Assembly (NCBI GenBank): GCA_963701825.1
Contig: CAVPBG010000003.1
Location: 451,762-515,761, forward strand
Direction of reading: 5' to 3'
Origin: an uncultured Actinomycetes bacterium
Lineage (GTDB): Bacteria > Actinomycetota > Acidimicrobiia > IMCC26256 > PALSA-610
Length of the DNA stretch: 64,000 bases
Shown: one piece after another, positions 33,087 through 63,430 of the stretch
Layout: every line of letters begins with the position of its first letter
How positions within the stretch are numbered: position 1 is the first letter of the stretch
Notes under the pieces: generated by a model
Seen by the model: only the letters and a program-made list of their open reading frames with translations
Database searches by the model: none
What the model was told of the DNA's origin: nothing
Translations under genes and position numbers: made by a program

Positions 33087-36000
33087 ATGGGGGATCTGAA
33101 TCCGCAACGCGTTCGACTCGGACGCGTTCCTCGCACGCTCAGGACAGCCGCGCCGCGTGCGCTGGCCGCGCTCACGCTCGGGCTCGGCATCGCGGTCGTC
33201 ACCGCCGCGCCCGCGGTCGCGGCCGCGCCGTCGGCGCCGCAATCGGTCAACGTCACTCCGGGCCCGACGGTCGGGAACATGACCATCCGTTGGTCGTCGC
33301 CCGCGTCGACCGGTGGTGTCGCGATCACCGGGTTCCAGTACCAGGTTCATGTCGACGCGGGCGCGTTCGGCGCGCCGCTCACGCTCGGCCCGTCGACCGC
33401 GCGCTCCGCGGTCGTTCCTTGCGCCGCGCCCGCCACGACCGGGCACGGCTGCACGTACGAGGTCCGCGCGATCAACGGCACATCGGGCGCGTGGAGCGCG
33501 CCGGTCGCCGCGGTGTGGTCCGTGCCGAGCCCGGCCGTCCTCGGCCGCGCGCTCGCGGGCCCGGGCGCCGGAGTCGCGACGTTGCAGTGGCGCCCGTCGG
33601 CCAGCACCGGTGGCCTCGCCGTCAGTTACGAATACGAAGTCAGCACCGGCACCGGCTTTGGCGCACCCGTCGCGATCGCGCCGGGCTCGATCTCGCTGGT
33701 CCCGGGTGAGCCGTGGCCCGTCGACTCCGCCGCGGTCACCTGCCCGTTGGGCTCGGGACCTGTCGTCAGTTGTTCCTATGTCCTGTTGGCCGTGAACGGC
33801 GTGGGCGCGAGCCCGGTATCCGTCGTACGCACCGCGGTCGAGAAGCGGCCCGGCGCCGCGACCGGCATCACCGCGTCGAACACGTCCGTCGCGCTCGGCA
33901 CCGGGCTCGCGAGCCAGACCGTCGTGTGGACGCCGCCGACCGTCAGCGGCGGGACGCCCGTCACCGACAACCGGGTCTGGGTGTGCGCGACTGCGAACGG
34001 CACACCGTGCACGAACGTCTCGACGGGCTGGACGCAGGTCACCGACCTCGTCGGCACCCCGCCCGCGTCGACCACCCCCGCGGTGTGTCCGGCCAACGGG
34101 CGCTGCGGTTACGAGGTCTGGCCGACCAACGCCGTCGGTCACTCGTGGGCCGTCGGTTACTCGCACCCGAGCCCGCCCACGACGTTGATGGCAACCGCGA
34201 GCCTCGCCGCGCCGGGTCAGGTCACGTTGTCGTGGCAGGCAACTCCCGATTCCGGCACTGCGTTCGGCCACTACGTGTTGTTCGAATGTGACTCGAACCA
34301 GACGTGCACCAACGGCAGCTGGACCGCGAACCCCGCCGACGCCGCGCCGTGGAATGTCACTCAACTGACTGCAACGCCGACGGCCACCACCACTCAGTAC
34401 CCTTGCGGTGTCGTCCACGCCTGCACCTTCGAGATCGGCTACATCGACGCCTCGGGTCACATCGGCGGCGTCACCAACTCCGTCATCACGACGGGCCTCG
34501 ACGCACCCACCCTCACCGCGGTACCCGGCGCGACGCCCGGCGCGGTCAACCTGAGCTGGACCACACCCGCCACCGGGCAGATCAACCAGTACGAGATCGA
34601 CCGCGACACCGGCAGCGGCCTCGGCTTCCTGGCCGACGTCCCCGCCGCGCCGACGTCGTACATCGACACCACCTGCGGCGCGGGCGTGACGTGTCACTAC
34701 ACGGTGCGCGCCCTGCTGTTCCCGAGCGGCACGTCGCCCGCAAGCAACGAAGCATCCGCAACGGCCCCGCTCGACTCCGCGATCGCGATCACCACTCCGG
34801 TGGCGGGCGCGCGCCTCGGTGACTCCACTCCGACCTTCTCCGGCACCGCCGCGACCCGCGAACAGCGCCACCGTGACCGTGAAGGTCTGGGTCGGCGCTC
34901 TTCCGAGCGGAACATTGCAGGAGACCCTCACCACGACCCGCGCCGCCACGGCATGGACCGTCGACGCAACGACGCTGCCCGACGGCACCTACACCGTGCA
35001 GGCGCAACAGACCACACCGTCGTCGGGCGTCGTGTTGAGCCCGCCGATCACCTTCACCACCGACACCACGGGTCCGACCGTTTCGATCACGAGTGTGAAC
35101 GGCGCCGCGCACGCGTTGCCGTTCTCGACCAGTGCGAACGTCACATCGATCGGCGGCGCGTGCGGCACGGCCACCGGTGACAACGCGACCGTGTCGGTCG
35201 CGATCGGCGGCGCCGGTTCCGAGACCGGCACCGCGCCCTGCACCGCGGGCGCATGGGCGTACACGCTCGTCACCCCGCTCACAACCGGCGGCGCGTACAC
35301 CGCGACCGTCACCCAGGGCGACAGCACGCTCAACACCGGCACGACCGGAACGCAGAGCATCTCGATCGACAAGACCGCGCCGGTCGTCACCGTCACGACC
35401 GTCAACGGAACCGTGCGTGCCCTCCCGCTCTCGACGGCCACGACCGTCACTTCCATCGGCGGCGCGTGCGGCACGCTCGCGGGCGACGCGGCCACCGTCT
35501 CGATCGCGATCACCGGCGCGAGCACCCAGAACGGCACTGCGGCATGCACCGCCGGCGCCTGGAGCTTCGCGCCGGCCAGCGCGCTTTCGGCCGACGGCGT
35601 CTACTCCCTCACCGCCACCCAGACCGACGCGGCCGGCAACACCGGCACGAGCGGCGCGCAGACGGTCACCGTCGACAAGACCGCACCGGTCGTCACCCTC
35701 ACGACGGTCAACGGAACCGCGCGCACCTTCCCGTTCCTCAGCAACGCGACGATCACCACCGTCGGCGGCGCGTGTGGCGTGGCCACCGGTGACGCACCGT
35801 CGGTGTCGCTCACGCTCACCGGCGCCGGTAGCGAGAACGGTGTCGCGGCCTGCACCGCGGGCGCGTGGACGTACACATTCGTCAGCGCGCTGACCGTGAA
35901 CGGCGCGTACTCGGTCACGGCCACCCAGACCGATGCCGTGTCGAACACCGGTACGAGCGGAGCCAAGACGGTCAACCTCGACACCACCGCACCCACACTC

Positions 36001-49552: not shown

Positions 49553-50290
49553 ATGGAGCAGGACGCCGCGATCGAGCCTTCTCGCCTGCGCCACCGCGTG
49601 ACGCACCGGCTGCCGATGTCGGTGCGCCAGTTCCCGTTCCGCGCCGCCGACCGGGCGGTCGCCGAGCTCGACAAGCGTCGGTTGAACACTGCGCACCCGA
49701 ACATCGCGGCCGCGCTCGCCCGGCCCAAGGATTTCACCGAGCTGCGCCAGACCTACGACAAGTACGTCGCCGACGTCTCCAGCTGGGAGTGGGCGGTCTC
49801 CTGGCCCACGGTGCGCGCCCTCGACACGTTGTGCGAGGAGCTGCAGCCCCGCCACATCCTCGACCTCGGCTCGGGCCTCAGCACGTTCGTGGTGGCCAAC
49901 TGGGCGCGCCGCAGCGGCCTCGATGTGGAGATCGTCTCCGTCGACGACTCCCCCGACTGGCTCGCCAAGACCCGCGCCTTCCTCGACCAGAACGGGCTCT
50001 CGGCGCGCCTCATCGACATCGGCGAGCTGAGCACGCTTCCCGCGTCAACCTTCGAGCTCGCGTTCGACGACATCGGCCGCACCGAAGATCGCTCGAAGGT
50101 GATCGAGACCCTCACGCGCGTGATGGCGCCGGGCGGCGTCGTCGTGCTCGACGACATGAACGTGCGCGGCTACCGCGAAGAGGTGCGCACCAAGCTCGAC
50201 GCGGCGGGTTGGAAGCTCTTCAGCCTGCGGACGCAGACGATCGACCCCAAGGGCCGCTTCGCCATGCTCACCGCCGCCCCCAAGCCCTAG
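49553..50290 (+). CDS. Class I SAM-dependent methyltransferase-like protein (start taken at MEQDAAIE; ORF opens at 49454)
   Basis: ...RHILDLGSGLSTFVVANW (motif I-like)...GGVVVLDDMN. Confidence 0.6.
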   Translation: MEQDAAIEPSRLRHRVTHRLPMSVRQFPFRAADRAVAELDKRRLNTAHPNIAAALARPKDFTELRQTYDKYVADVSSWEWAVSWPTVRALDTLCEELQPRHILDLGSGLSTFVVANWARRSGLDVEIVSVDDSPDWLAKTRAFLDQNGLSARLIDIGELSTLPASTFELAFDDIGRTEDRSKVIETLTRVMAPGGVVVLDDMNVRGYREEVRTKLDAAGWKLFSLRTQTIDPKGRFAMLTAAPKP

Positions 50291-50298
50291 CAAAGAAA

Positions 50299-50349
50299 CG
50301 AACCGTCGTGAGTTAGGTGCGTATATGGCACCTAACTCACGACAGTTCG
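50299..50349. repeat. Palindromic REP-like element, copy 2 (22-bp stem, one mismatch), at a convergent gene junction; probable bidirectional terminator
   Basis: cgaaccgtcgtgagttaggtgc-gtatatg-gcacctaactcacgacagttcg. It lies 9 nt after the stop at 50290 and 7 nt before the minus-strand stop at 50356. Confidence 0.75.
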
Positions 50350-50355
50350 AGGGTG

Positions 50356-51909
50356 TTACTCGTCGCTGAGGATCGTGCCGACGGCGTGACCCTGGCCGAC
50401 GATGACGCCCGCCGGGTGCGCGGTGCACTGCAGGACCGTCGTGCCGGTGGTGCACAGGGCGATCACGTCGACGGTGAGGGTCTTGTCGAGCTCGTCGTTG
50501 AGGTCGGGGATCGTCGCTACGGCGACGGTGCGATTGACCTGCCCGGGCAGGAACTTCACCGACTTCAGCACGCCACCGGTCCAGTCGCCGGGGTTCGTCT
50601 TCGACTTATGCGTGGCCGTGTCGGCCGCCACGATGAACAGCACCCGGAACGTCGTCGCCGCGGGGCGGGAGAGCGTCACCGAGAACTTCAGCGCCTTCGG
50701 GCCACCCAGGTCGCCTTCGGGCACCGACGCGCTCCCGATGTTCACCACGTTGGAGCTACCCGAAGCCAGCGGGTCCGCGATGATCGTTCCCGTGCCGACC
50801 GGGCGCCGGAACACGTATCCACCGGTGAGCCCACCGGCCGGTGCGCTCAGGTTGAACGTGAACGTGCCGCCCGAGCTCGCGCTCGGGAGGATGCGGACCG
50901 CGACGTAATGCGCGGTGGCTGCACCGGCGTTGAACTTCGTCTTGCCGATCAACGCGGTGTAGTCGGTACCGGCTGTCGCGGTGCCGTCCGCGGTCGAGAA
51001 GTCGATCGTGACCGCCGCGGTCGGCGGCCTCGACAAGATGATCGGGAACAAGAGGGTGCGGTACGGGCTCACGTTCGGGCTGTTGACGACCGTTCCGTCA
51101 CCGACGGAGATGTTCAGGTCACCGACGACCGAGAACCCGACGGGCCCCGACGACGACGATGCAAACGAGCCGTCGCCGATGTAGTCGGCTTCGATCGAGT
51201 GTCCGCCACCCAAGGCCAGCGACGAACCCGGCGCGACCGGCACGATCGCAGTTCCGTCGCTACCGACTGCGGCGGTGACCGGTGCGCCGCCGTCGAGCGA
51301 TACCGAGAACGAGCCCTCGGGCACGATCCCGTCGCCCACACGGTGCACCTCGACGTGCGCGTAGGCGGCCTTCGACACCGCGATGGGGGCGCCGATCAGA
51401 TACGTGCTGACCTCGGTCGGAGAAGGCACCGCGCCCAATGCGTCGGCCGCGAACGAGATGTCGCTCTGCGGCTGCGCGCCGCCTTCATTGTTCGACTCCG
51501 AGACGTACACGACACACGGTGCGGTGCCCAACGACGAGCACGAACGGTTGCCGTTGCCGATCCCGGTTTCTTTGATCGCGATATTCGGGAAAACCGCATC
51601 CGACGTGAACGAAAGGCTCCCGGGCGACGTGAAACCCAAAACTTCACAGTCGCGCGAGCTGGGCGTCATGTTCACGACCGGCAGCGCCGTGTTGTCGGCG
51701 TACGCGTTGCCGCACTCGGAGATCTCGACCGTGGCCTGCGAGCTCATCGCCAGGCCCGAGACCGTGACCGTGACGAGCTGGCCGTCGGTGAGTCCCGTCG
51801 ACTGGTCGAGGCTCAGTACCGGGCTCGCACTCGCCACACCCGCCCCAACCGCACCTAATCCCATCACCGCGACGAATGTCGCGACCGCGAACGTGGCGAA
51901 CTTCTTCAC
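50356..51909 (-). CDS. Secreted protein: signal peptide, neocarzinostatin-like/Ig-like N-terminal domains, two Calx-beta-like domains
   Basis: GTG start VKKFATFAVATFVAVMGLGAVGAGVASA (signal), ..VTVTVSGLA...VEISECGN.., then ADGTATAGTDYTA and ..ADTATHKSKTNPGDW.. blocks typical of Calx-beta. The upstream part of ORF 50356..52569 looks non-coding. Confidence 0.7.
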   Translation of the reverse strand: MKKFATFAVATFVAVMGLGAVGAGVASASPVLSLDQSTGLTDGQLVTVTVSGLAMSSQATVEISECGNAYADNTALPVVNMTPSSRDCEVLGFTSPGSLSFTSDAVFPNIAIKETGIGNGNRSCSSLGTAPCVVYVSESNNEGGAQPQSDISFAADALGAVPSPTEVSTYLIGAPIAVSKAAYAHVEVHRVGDGIVPEGSFSVSLDGGAPVTAAVGSDGTAIVPVAPGSSLALGGGHSIEADYIGDGSFASSSSGPVGFSVVGDLNISVGDGTVVNSPNVSPYRTLLFPIILSRPPTAAVTIDFSTADGTATAGTDYTALIGKTKFNAGAATAHYVAVRILPSASSGGTFTFNLSAPAGGLTGGYVFRRPVGTGTIIADPLASGSSNVVNIGSASVPEGDLGGPKALKFSVTLSRPAATTFRVLFIVAADTATHKSKTNPGDWTGGVLKSVKFLPGQVNRTVAVATIPDLNDELDKTLTVDVIALCTTGTTVLQCTAHPAGVIVGQGHAVGTILSDE

Positions 51910-61299: not shown

Positions 61300-62352
61300 A
61301 TGGCACAGCACCGACTTCGTAACCGGGCGACGGTGCTGGGACTCCTCGCGATCGCCGCGGTCGGCGTCTTCGGCATCACGACCGCCGGCGCGAAGACCGC
61401 CACCGACGACAACGCAGGCAGCGCGGCCGGTCCCGCAGCCTTGGTGATCACCGACGCGCGCATCGGTACGCGGCCGTTGTCGAGCGGCACCCGCGCGAAC
61501 CCGATCCCGATCGACCCGCACGTACGCGAGACCCTCGCGATGACGGTGAAGAACATCGGCGCGTCGACGGGCCAGGTGCGTTACCTGCGCCTCACCGGCG
61601 CCCTCATGGGCATCAACTTCGTGCACTACGAGGCGAGCGTCAACACCGATGTCGCGCCCGGCGAAACGAGCACGATCAGCGTTCCCGGTGACTTCTTCGA
61701 CATCGACGGCGTCGCGCGCGGCTACGTGAACGCGCAGATGCAACTCGTCGACCAGCAACGTTCCCCGTTGGCGACGCAACACTTCGTCGCCGACGTGCGG
61801 GGCAAGGTCGTCTCGTCGGTCGGCTTCATGTTCCTGAGCGCGCTCGCGTTCGCGGTCATCTCGATCGTCGACATCATCATCGGGCTCTCCCGGCGGCGCC
61901 TGCCCCGCAACCGGTTCGTCCGGGGCATCCTGTTCGCCCTCGCGACCGCGAGCACCGTTGTGACCATCGTGATCGGCGCGGCGATGTTCCGCGTCGCCCT
62001 GTTCGACGCCAACACGTGGGTACCGGCGGTGCTGATCGCGGCAGCCATCGGTTTCGTGCTCGGCTACCTGTCGCCCGGAAGGGCAGTCCGCACCTCGCGC
62101 GACATTGCCGACGACAAGGTCATCGACCTCGTCGCCGCCGATGCCGTGGCCCGGGCCAGCGGCCAGTTCGACGCCAACGCGACCACCGGCACCGTTCCCG
62201 CCACCCACGAGTCGGGCTCCATGCCGGCCACGCACGAGTCGGGCTCGATGCCGGCCACCCACGAGTCGGGCGACTACAGCGAGGTTGCCGCCAACCTCAA
62301 GGAGAACTCGCCGCCCCAACACCACTCCGGCAGCCACGAACCCCTCGAATAA
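61300..62352 (+). CDS. Membrane protein: N-terminal signal/anchor, ectodomain of about 150 aa, three TM helices, cytoplasmic tail with 3x PATHESGSM repeats
   Basis: MAQHRLRNRATVLGLLAIAAVGVFGITTAGA..., then TMs VGFMFLSALAFAVISIVDIIIGL / ILFALATASTVVTIVIGAAMF / VPAVLIAAAIGFVLGYL. RBS GGGGGGCGGG. The ORF opens earlier (60502), but that part overlaps the kinase out of frame. Confidence 0.7.
   Translation: MAQHRLRNRATVLGLLAIAAVGVFGITTAGAKTATDDNAGSAAGPAALVITDARIGTRPLSSGTRANPIPIDPHVRETLAMTVKNIGASTGQVRYLRLTGALMGINFVHYEASVNTDVAPGETSTISVPGDFFDIDGVARGYVNAQMQLVDQQRSPLATQHFVADVRGKVVSSVGFMFLSALAFAVISIVDIIIGLSRRRLPRNRFVRGILFALATASTVVTIVIGAAMFRVALFDANTWVPAVLIAAAIGFVLGYLSPGRAVRTSRDIADDKVIDLVAADAVARASGQFDANATTGTVPATHESGSMPATHESGSMPATHESGDYSEVAANLKENSPPQHHSGSHEPLE
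62197..62274 (+). repeat. 27-bp tandem coding repeat (about 2.9 units) encoding PATHESGSM
   Basis: cccgccacccacgagtcgggctccatg / ccggccacgcacgagtcgggctcgatg / ccggccacccacgagtcgggcgac. Confidence 0.9.
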
Positions 62353-62354
62353 TG

Positions 62355-62405
62355 CGAACTGTCGTGAGTTGTGGGCGCATCGCGCCCACAACTCACGACA
62401 GTTCG
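62355..62405. repeat. Palindromic REP-like element, copy 3 (24-bp perfect stem, 3-nt loop), at a convergent gene junction; probable bidirectional terminator
   Basis: cgaactgtcgtgagttgtgggcgc-atc-gcgcccacaactcacgacagttcg. It lies 3 nt after the TAA at 62350-62352 and 11 nt before the minus-strand stop at 62416. Confidence 0.8.
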
Positions 62406-62415
62406 GGGGTTGGGG

Positions 62416-63430
62416 TTATTCGCCGGAGAAGTTTTCCCACTCCAGGGGGTAGACCCAGTGCTCGCCGTCGATGCCCTTGAGGAGCACGAGGCGACCCTCG
62501 CCGAAGTCGAGGTCGCCACGCGCGGAGGCGATCTCGTGCACGAGGGATGACACGAGGATCTCGCGGCCCTGGGCGTGGCCGGCGACGCGGGCGGCCATGA
62601 TCACGTGGCGGCCGAAGATGTCGTCGCCGGCCGAGATGACCTCGCCGGTGTGCACACCCACACGGATGCGCACCGAACCGTCTTCGTCCTGCCGTTCGCT
62701 CTCGGCCAGTTCCTTCTGCACCGCGATCATGCAGAGCAGCGCGCGGCGCGCGCCCGGGAACGTCAGCATGAAACCGTCGCCCTGGTTCTTGACCTCGTGG
62801 CCCGACCAGCGCTTCAGGTTGCTGCGCACGATGTTGTTGTGCCGGTTCAGCACCTTCATCCACGCGGTGTCGCCCATCGACGTGGCCTTCTCCGTCGACG
62901 ACTCGATGTCGCTGAACACGATGGTGATCGTGCCTTCGTAGTCGTGTGCGCCGAGCAGGCCCTTCGTGTCGCGCAACGATCGGGCGACGGCGTCGAGCGA
63001 GGTTTCCCGCGCCCTTCGGCCCCGCGCTCGCGGCGCGCATGGGCGCACCGGCGATCATCGTCTCGCGCGACCCGCCGGGCGCGAGCGTGGAACGCGCGGT
63101 GCCCTGGTTCTCGACGAGCTCGAACGTCGTGTCACCGATCCGCACGACGGAACCCGGCTGCAAGAGCATGGGAACGTCGATCTTCTTGCCGTCGATGAAC
63201 GTGCCGTTGGTACTGCGCAGATCTTCGACCATGATGTCGACGCCGCGGACCGTGAGCAGCACATGGCGCCGCGACGTCTGCGAGTCGGCGATCAGCAGAC
63301 CGTCACACTCCCGCCCGATCTCGAGCGGCTCCGTCACCTGGACGCGCAGCGGCTTTCGGTTCAGTTGTTTCACCACGATGACCGGATAATCCACGCCGTC
63401 TTCCCTGGTTGCCCATGCGCCCGGACCCAA
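62416..63430 (-). pseudogene. FHA domain fused to a class III adenylate/guanylate cyclase; one frame change near 63005; start uncertain (TTG 63430 or GTG 63394)
   Basis: FHA: LEIGRECDGLLIADSQTSRRHVLLTVRGVDIMVEDLRSTNGTFIDGKKI (ORF 62393..63430). Cyclase: ITIVFSDIESSTEKA...EVKNQGDGFMLTF...IRVGVHTGEVI...GRHVIMAARVAG (ORF 62416..63048). Confidence 0.8.

Follow-up and report, generated by a model that had tools for sequence, protein, structure and literature searches.

A family of dispersed 51-nt palindromes in an Acidimicrobiia genome and an AbiEi-DUF559 protein as its candidate partner

Introduction

The closest described counterparts of the repeats treated here are the REP/REPIN-RAYT systems (REPtrons) of Proteobacteria. 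In these systems tens of short repetitive extragenic palindromes (REPs), biased to the 3' ends of genes, are accompanied by a single-copy enzyme gene, that of the REP-associated tyrosine transposase (RAYT), which has copies of its own repeat type on both sides. One genome can harbour several such enzyme/repeat pairs, and the repeats are largely conserved by position, that is vertically, and are homogenised within a genome. The same features are found in a family of 51-nt palindromes, three copies of which lie in a 64,000-nt stretch of DNA (the window) from an uncultured Acidimicrobiia actinobacterium, which related records assign to soil (contig CAVPBG010000003.1 of assembly GCA_963701825.1, positions 451,762 to 515,761). 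In the genome that contains the window (G000; 4.44 Mb, 68.5% GC, five contigs) 58 of 60 classified extragenic copies occupy convergent or tandem gene junctions, and a single-copy gene that is bracketed by the palindromes and co-varies with them encodes a putative AbiEi-DUF559 nuclease in the place of a RAYT.

The system departs from REPtrons in its enzyme, its repeat and its host. The protein is predicted to combine an AbiEi-type winged helix-turn-helix with a Vsr/EDxHD-like PD-(D/E)XK nuclease, whereas REPtrons use a HUH Y1 transposase. The repeat is a single 51-nt near-perfect palindrome that begins with CGAAC and lacks the GT[AG]G head, whereas REPs are imperfect palindromes of 20-40 nt with a GTAG head, or REP doublets. 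The host belongs to the Acidimicrobiia. The RAYT/TnpA-REP-like gene that an earlier, sequence-only reading of the window had proposed to look for is absent: no match to PF01797 (Y1 HUH) was obtained in G000 or in the sister genome G014 even at E values up to 1, while control genomes did match, and the candidate partner is instead the AbiEi-DUF559 (Vsr-like) nuclease. These comparisons speak for a partnership of the REP/RAYT type in which another enzyme takes the part of the RAYT. To our knowledge, dispersed palindromic repeats of bacteria have so far been explained mechanistically only in connection with a RAYT or the transposase of an insertion sequence (IS), and they are unexplained in Actinomycetota, for which a concrete candidate enzyme can now be named.

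Parts of the system resemble other known proteins and structures. The inverted repeats bound by AbiEi proteins lie at the promoter of the AbiEi gene itself, and an AbiEi fold occupies the N-terminal ~200 residues of the protein described here. It differs from the AbiE type IV toxin-antitoxin systems in that its 1.07-kb cassette consists of a single open reading frame (ORF) and contains no gene for the AbiEii nucleotidyltransferase toxin, in that it has a C-terminal nuclease domain, and in that the inverted repeats occur genome-wide at gene 3' ends. The endonuclease I-Bth0305I is likewise a multidomain protein with a C-terminal, Vsr-like catalytic domain. It is a homodimer with a ~60-bp footprint centred on a pseudopalindrome (PMC3239194), which fits the size and symmetry of the 51-75-bp element. 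However, I-Bth0305I resides in a group I intron of a phage and targets a single site, in recA (PMC3239194), whereas the putative nuclease is encoded by a free-standing chromosomal gene, has an AbiEi-like N-terminal part and is associated with ~60 dispersed sites. Factor-independent bidirectional terminators share with the palindromes a strong GC-rich hairpin right after both convergent stops; the palindromes differ from them by the missing U-tract, a sequence conserved over ~60 loci, a fixed length, and mobile, homogenising copies. No description of a nuclease-palindrome partnership was found in the literature on DUF559 and palindromes, AbiEi and DUF559, or Vsr and repeats.

The palindrome family and its location

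A genome-wide two-arm search that allowed up to four mismatches per arm revealed at least 62 loci in G000, 58 of which are exactly 51 nt long; the pattern search recommended by the sequence-only reading thus turned three copies into a large family tied to gene ends. Each element consists of a 16-nt arm (consensus CGAACYGKCGTGAGTT), a 19-nt palindromic centre and a second 16-nt arm. The ~12 nt adjoining each end of the core, rich in C and A on the 5' flank and in G and T on the 3' flank, extend the element to a looser palindrome of ~75 nt. Single copies are spread across four contigs and occupy junctions between conserved genes. Their apical parts had been thought to differ completely while remaining complementary. 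The complementarity resides mostly in whole palindromic haplotypes, and the centres fall into about six recurring subtypes instead of varying freely.

The evidence for pairing between the arms is mixed. In arm-to-arm comparisons positions 8 and 18-23 are concordant, whereas positions 6 (C/T in a CpG) and 14 vary independently, as expected without a pairing constraint. Over all copies the counts of C/T at position 6 against A/G in the partner are 16/14/16/11 (window position 50304 against 50344 is an example), a statistically independent distribution that suggests repeated CpG transitions in either half rather than a pairing constraint. Across genera double-sided changes are seen in 14 of 23 pairs and 91% of cells pair, a signal that could equally be the outcome of two identical half-sites.

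Gene ends were determined by scoring the reading frames of the flanks with a home-made codon-bias score, which is crude. By this measure 37 of the 60 classified copies (62%) lie at convergent junctions, 21 at tandem and 2 at divergent ones, compared with 17% convergent junctions in the genome as a whole (binomial p ~1e-14). Of the 97 gene ends that face an element, 68 stop 0-16 nt away from it, 14 use a TGA inside the arm (CGTGAGTT) and 2 overlap the edge of the element, which amounts to 84 gene ends (87%) at a distance of 0-16 nt or within the element. The proximity to stop codons first remarked on for the window copies is therefore general, and the repeats rewrite the C-terminal codons and the stop codons of adjacent genes.

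A putative nuclease gene bracketed by the palindromes

A search for genes between two copies of the family identified an ORF of 311 aa at G000:C3:1117871-1118803, outside the window. It is the only ORF of the 1.07-kb cassette, which is situated between two neighbouring genes. A protein search of 63 genomes of the taxonomic family yielded close full-length orthologues with 41-86% identity in 13 other genomes and a split one in G068. At all 15 orthologue loci, which represent several genera, a long palindrome is present on both sides of the gene, except at one locus cut by a contig end. The bracketing palindrome varies with the lineage and keeps a GCGTGA..TCACGC-like core; the ORF frequently terminates at a TGA inside the downstream arm. 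In G074, which belongs to another genus, the 57%-identical gene is flanked by two copies upstream and two downstream. Of 15 further loci with more distant homologues (33-47% identity), 7, in seven further genomes, have unrelated palindromes on both sides of the gene. In G059, G060 and G046 the palindromes that bracket the gene recur elsewhere in the same genome and are not found in the other genomes, and two further paralogues in G000 are each bracketed by a dispersed palindrome family of their own. The synteny of the neighbouring genes is partial, with an upstream neighbour common to G042, G052, G059 and G060. In soil metagenomes the number of close homologues exceeds 300. Most of their contigs measure 1-3 kb, a size to be expected where repeats on both sides of a gene break short-read assemblies. 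A DnaA box with at most one mismatch was not found at the 15 orthologue loci.

The Pfam matches of the 311-aa protein to AbiEi_1, DUF559 and REase_MTES_1575 are weak; protein P0001 scores 23.8 bits against DUF559, the cut-off being 20.6. The AlphaFold model of the G014 orthologue has a predicted local distance difference test score (pLDDT) of 90.9. Its N-terminal ~200 residues resemble the AbiEi antitoxin fold (6y8q), with a Pfam match to AbiEi_4/AbiEi_1, and its C-terminal ~100 residues resemble the catalytic domain of I-Bth0305I (3r3p) and a DUF559-type protein (3hrl). Foldseek aligned the model with the 3r3p chains at E 5e-3, probability 1.0 and a template modelling (TM) score of 0.66-0.70 on the target, as expected of a Vsr-like catalytic fold. 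In 49 homologues the motif IEYDSKQEHSDEFQ is essentially invariant: D253 and H258 do not vary, and E251 and D260 are conserved in at least 90%. E251 and D253 align with the E and N of the EVNG sequence of the 3r3p chain in a profile match that is itself weak (E 0.34). Fusion proteins of the DUF559/AbiEi type, which are annotated as "very short patch repair endonuclease" or "antitoxin", gain a testable substrate in the palindromes.

The two additional families of G000 have different sequences. The second, CCAACA-GTGGGCACGCTCACGTACCG-nnn-CGGTACGTGAGCGTGCCCAC-TGTTGG, comprises ~35 copies genome-wide, two of which lie 1 kb apart around a distant AbiEi-DUF559 paralogue that is frameshifted in the assembly (G000:C2:1593504-1594546, outside the window). 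The third consists of 44-nt units (CATGAAGCAATTTCCCTGCCATCTGATGGCAGGG...), often two or three in tandem, at ~30 loci; its units bracket an intact 308-aa AbiEi_4/DUF559-like paralogue, the stop codon of which overlaps one unit (G000:C2:1475931-1477000, outside the window). Marker-gene completeness is 73% for G000 and 51% for G014 despite their assembly into five contigs and one contig of 4.4-4.7 Mb, which suggests frameshift-rich long-read assemblies. Apparent pseudogenes such as the partner of the second family may therefore be sequencing errors.

Distribution and co-occurrence

The core pattern occurs 34 times in G000 and 30 times in G014, a genome of the same genus that consists of a single 4.7-Mb contig and is ~90% identical to G000; 18 other genomes of the genus are essentially devoid of it. 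With exact-pattern copies counted (45 in G000, 42 in G014), these two are the only genomes of the genus that have the orthologue together with a large family. The other 18 contain nuclease paralogues of ~30-36% identity only. In the taxonomic family as a whole the conserved unit is the outer 13-mer CGAACYGGCGTGA, and the total length is fixed at 51 nt; the inner 25 nt are genus-specific, yet palindromic.

Elements were counted with a covariance model built from 43 copies of several genera and run over the taxonomic family, the counts being taken among the best 94 matches per genome. In 62 family genomes the element count correlates with the best protein E-value (Spearman 0.69). At least five hits were obtained in all 14 genomes with a close orthologue versus 14 of the 48 genomes without one.

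A scan of all GTDB genomes with the exact pattern identified L003 as a true member of the family. The other matches outside the taxonomic family, in Prevotellaceae, Haladaptatus, Brachybacterium and Solirubrobacteraceae, are isolated long hairpins that share only the demanded 10-nt core and were taken as chance.

Turnover between sister genomes

Each of the 22 comparable G014 copies has a G000 counterpart in the same position. The remaining 39 G000 copies correspond to 31 filled and 8 unfilled sites in G014, so that 53 of 61 positions are shared and 8 are empty. Where an empty site could be aligned clearly, it is a gene junction, in most cases convergent, with stop codons that overlap or lie 1-8 nt apart (e.g. 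GGTGA-C-TTAGTA). Relative to these sites the insert comprises the core, preceded by a short linker rich in C and A and followed by one rich in G and T. In the 22 orthologous pairs the flanks are 92% and the arms 90% identical, whereas the centres are only 56% identical and still palindromic. In G014 homogenisation to AGGTGCG is half complete, and GTGGGCG predominates in G000; in both cases the dominant centre is the subtype that brackets the nuclease gene. Four to five copies are chimeric, with two common subtypes meeting at the dyad. The empty sites and the 56% identity of the centres at shared sites indicate that the copies move and homogenise: the repeats are mobile and evolve in concert. 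As sites turn over while positions stay, concerted evolution within a genome can be measured directly by comparing the sister genomes.

G009 lacks the entire palindrome-gene-palindrome cassette and has a spacer of 15 nt at the orthologous convergent junction. The junction (G000:C3:1117763-1118844; orthologous junctions L105-L110) is a hotspot of variable inserts: G000 and G014 carry the 1.07-kb cassette, G016, G020 and G002 an insert of ~2.8 kb, and G006 one of ~5 kb. No nuclease homologue was found in the fetched parts of the inserts of the latter four genomes. At another polymorphic site (G000:C3:1112589 versus G014:C1:3435440-3435780, L097) G014 retains CCCCT-CGAAC and then jumps to the right flank; this site may be an excision remnant rather than a site that was never occupied. 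Integron attC sites were considered and rejected, as the copies are single and scattered, not arranged in tandem arrays, and 53 of 61 positions are shared with the sister species (the integrase IntI itself was not searched for).

Proposed mechanism

The best explanation that the sequences offer is that the element of ~51 bp (~75 bp with the linkers) would be the cognate site of one chromosomally encoded protein. On balance we consider it probable, though far from certain, that the palindromes are the cognate sites of the dimeric nuclease and also act as bidirectional hairpin terminators. In this model a homodimer of the AbiEi-type winged-helix and DUF559 nuclease protein would recognise both conserved outer arms; the invariance of the 13-16-nt ends and the constant length of 51 nt would follow from this. 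A geometry like that of I-Bth0305I would account for the conserved arms, the fixed spacing and the symmetry. The enzyme would nick or cut close to the dyad, and repair from other copies would overwrite the centre, so that the copies of a genome would converge on the subtype found on both sides of the nuclease gene. Occasionally repair might install a copy at a new site. Copies would survive almost only between abutting stops, above all at convergent gene ends, because these would be the only permissive spots in a compact genome. If this is true, the protein would have a recognition site of unusual length and modular build, fixed at 51 bp, in which the arms are conserved and the centre can be swapped. 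The proposal of the sequence-only reading that the repeats form a REP/MITE-like family (MITE, miniature inverted-repeat transposable element), or a protein-recognised site superimposed on a terminator, gains support from copies that lie at gene ends, move and homogenise, and from the candidate cognate protein.

A wider version of this model is tentative, and we regard it as possible rather than probable. AbiEi-DUF559 proteins, a very large and unstudied actinobacterial family, would represent a second, mechanistically unrelated solution to the REP/RAYT lifestyle, in which a dimeric Vsr-like nuclease cuts its own ~51-bp palindrome, break-induced copying homogenises the population and seeds new copies between abutting stops, and the host uses the copies as bidirectional terminators.

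Several observations weigh against the nuclease-site model. G000 contains four units that lie between two copies, so that bracketing by itself does not single out the nuclease gene. The Spearman coefficient of 0.69 and the difference between genomes with and without a close orthologue ignore phylogeny, and some of the metagenome-assembled genomes are incomplete. G008, which is 99% complete, contains ~12 weaker-scoring copies, and no close orthologue and no bracketed paralogue were found in it; G050, G055 and G044 likewise have elements without a close orthologue. Such elements could be orphan copies, or their partners could have diverged or fallen into assembly gaps. Five clean comparisons of filled with empty sites revealed neither a consistent target-site duplication nor any other signature of insertion that would identify a mechanism. 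As no outgroup carries the family, insertion in G000 is indistinguishable from loss in G014 at the 8 polymorphic sites. The gene ends rest on the home-made codon-bias score. Finally, a dimer site in double-stranded DNA does not by itself need a variable centre that is self-complementary.

The protein might be merely a DNA-binding regulator or chromosome organiser resembling the AbiEi repressors. The palindromes would then be its operators or binding sites, the nuclease domain would be irrelevant, and ordinary recombination or slippage would have spread the repeats. We consider this unlikely. It would agree with the ~200 residues of the AbiEi fold, with the inverted repeats that AbiEi proteins bind at their own promoter, and with the palindrome ~57 nt upstream of the start codon of the nuclease gene, which stands beside a conserved promoter-like motif. 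However, ~60 sites at gene 3' ends are no operator layout, the residues of the nuclease motif are conserved across 49 homologues, and the turnover of centres and the presence/absence polymorphism point to an active process at the DNA level.

The promoter-like motif itself, TGTC[T/G]CA, is found ~17 nt before a CAnnnT box in front of every nuclease orthologue (L065:1444-1500 and the equivalent positions in L066-L079), and also in front of the paralogue of the third family. A -10-like box precedes the ATG of the orthologues by 6-8 nt. The arrangement suggests a promoter or operator of a leaderless mRNA.

An alternative that we judge improbable to a similar degree takes the cassette to be a selfish, free-standing homing-endonuclease gene, with the solo palindromes as vacant homing sites or scars of cassette loss and not as elements copied by the enzyme. 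The closest solved catalytic domain is indeed that of a homing endonuclease, the cassette behaves as an indel at its convergent junction (absent in G009, with other inserts of 2.8-5 kb in G016, G020, G002 and G006), and the metagenomic homologues reside mostly on 1-3-kb contigs. Against this interpretation, the gene is present in a single copy per genome despite ~60 potential sites, complete palindromes and not half-sites bracket it, and solo copies are found at new junctions without the gene.

The terminator question

The location of the palindromes at gene ends suggests a secondary role as bidirectional hairpin terminators. A GC-rich hairpin follows right after the stop codon, and the two intact copies in the window lie 2-10 nt from the stops. 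The hairpin of 22-24 bp probably forms a transcript-end structure that serves both convergent genes. There is in general no U-tract 3' of the hairpin, where the flank is G/T-rich (AGGGGTTGGGG-like); a scan for T-runs was passed by one strand of one window copy.

A terminator function could also be all there is. The palindromes would then be ordinary bidirectional terminators or 3'-end stabilisers selected for RNA structure, and would flank the nuclease gene simply because that gene forms an isolated transcription unit. Very stable hairpins 0-16 nt past the stops, mostly between convergent genes, would be in keeping with this view, and the empty sites are without any terminator, so that a hairpin could be useful there. 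We nevertheless regard it as less likely still than a regulator or a homing endonuclease: a G/T-rich tail takes the place of the U-tract, and selection for a hairpin leaves unexplained the invariant 13-16-nt arms, the fixed length of 51 nt, the indifference of positions 6 and 14 to pairing, the replacement of centres at orthologous sites, and the matching lineage-specific palindromes around the same gene family at no fewer than 22 loci.

Least of all do we expect the elements to be classical MITEs or REPs moved by a transposase of a conventional kind, be it a RAYT or the DDE enzyme of an IS (the ends would match CGAACYGKCGTGA), since apart from being short, palindromic, dispersed and polymorphic in presence they show no consistent target-site duplication and no GTAG-type REP head, PF01797 has no match in G000 or the single-contig G014, and the only gene consistently bracketed, where an autonomous parent would be expected, specifies a nuclease that belongs to none of the known transposase families (among IS families the search covered Y1 alone).

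The copies in the window

The right-arm 16-mer occurs six times in the window with up to three mismatches, versus 0.69 expected (none of 100 shuffles reached six). The three palindromes of the sequence-only reading are all present, the first of them at 1125-1174 instead of 1123-1175. A solitary half-site with three mismatches and no partner arm, at 33756-33771, was taken as chance. No Rfam family reached the gathering threshold over the window, with only noise around the element. The intact copies fold, as RNA or DNA, at -41 to -57 kcal/mol (z ~-6.6 to -11 versus shuffles).

The copy at 62355-62405 is a perfect palindrome of 51 nt with the centre GTGGGCGC/GCGCCCAC, a 24-bp stem without mismatch and a 3-nt loop (RNA fold -57/-55 kcal/mol, z ~-10 to -11). 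Its centre is the dominant subtype of G000, the same that brackets the nuclease gene; the orthologous site in G014 is filled and has another centre (AGGCCCGCATAGCGGGCCT). The copy is located in a convergent junction (62350..62418), in which the TAA of the plus-strand gene (62350-62352) is followed by a 2-nt linker, the core, the G/T-rich linker GGGGTTGGGG and TTA at 62416-62418, the TAA stop of the minus-strand gene. More distant genomes of the genus without the family have an unrelated spacer of 13 to ~55 nt at this junction. The upstream gene (61333..62352, plus strand; own gene call with an uncertain start) ends 2 nt before the element and has no clear Pfam family. The convergent gene (62416..63048, minus strand), which has a class III adenylate/guanylate cyclase domain, ends 10 nt from it.

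The second intact copy, 50299-50349 (51 nt, centre AGGTGC..GCACCT), has one C.A mismatch at arm position 6. It, too, occupies a convergent junction (50288..50358), composed of the TAG of a methyltransferase gene (50288-50290), an 8-nt linker, the core, a 6-nt linker and TTA at 50356-50358, the stop of the minus-strand gene. The copy at 1125-1174 is degenerate: 50 nt long, with the centre GGCCCG..CGGGCC, its left arm is short of one base. It lies at a tandem junction, 5 nt past the TAA at 1117-1119, and folds at -32/-36 kcal/mol.
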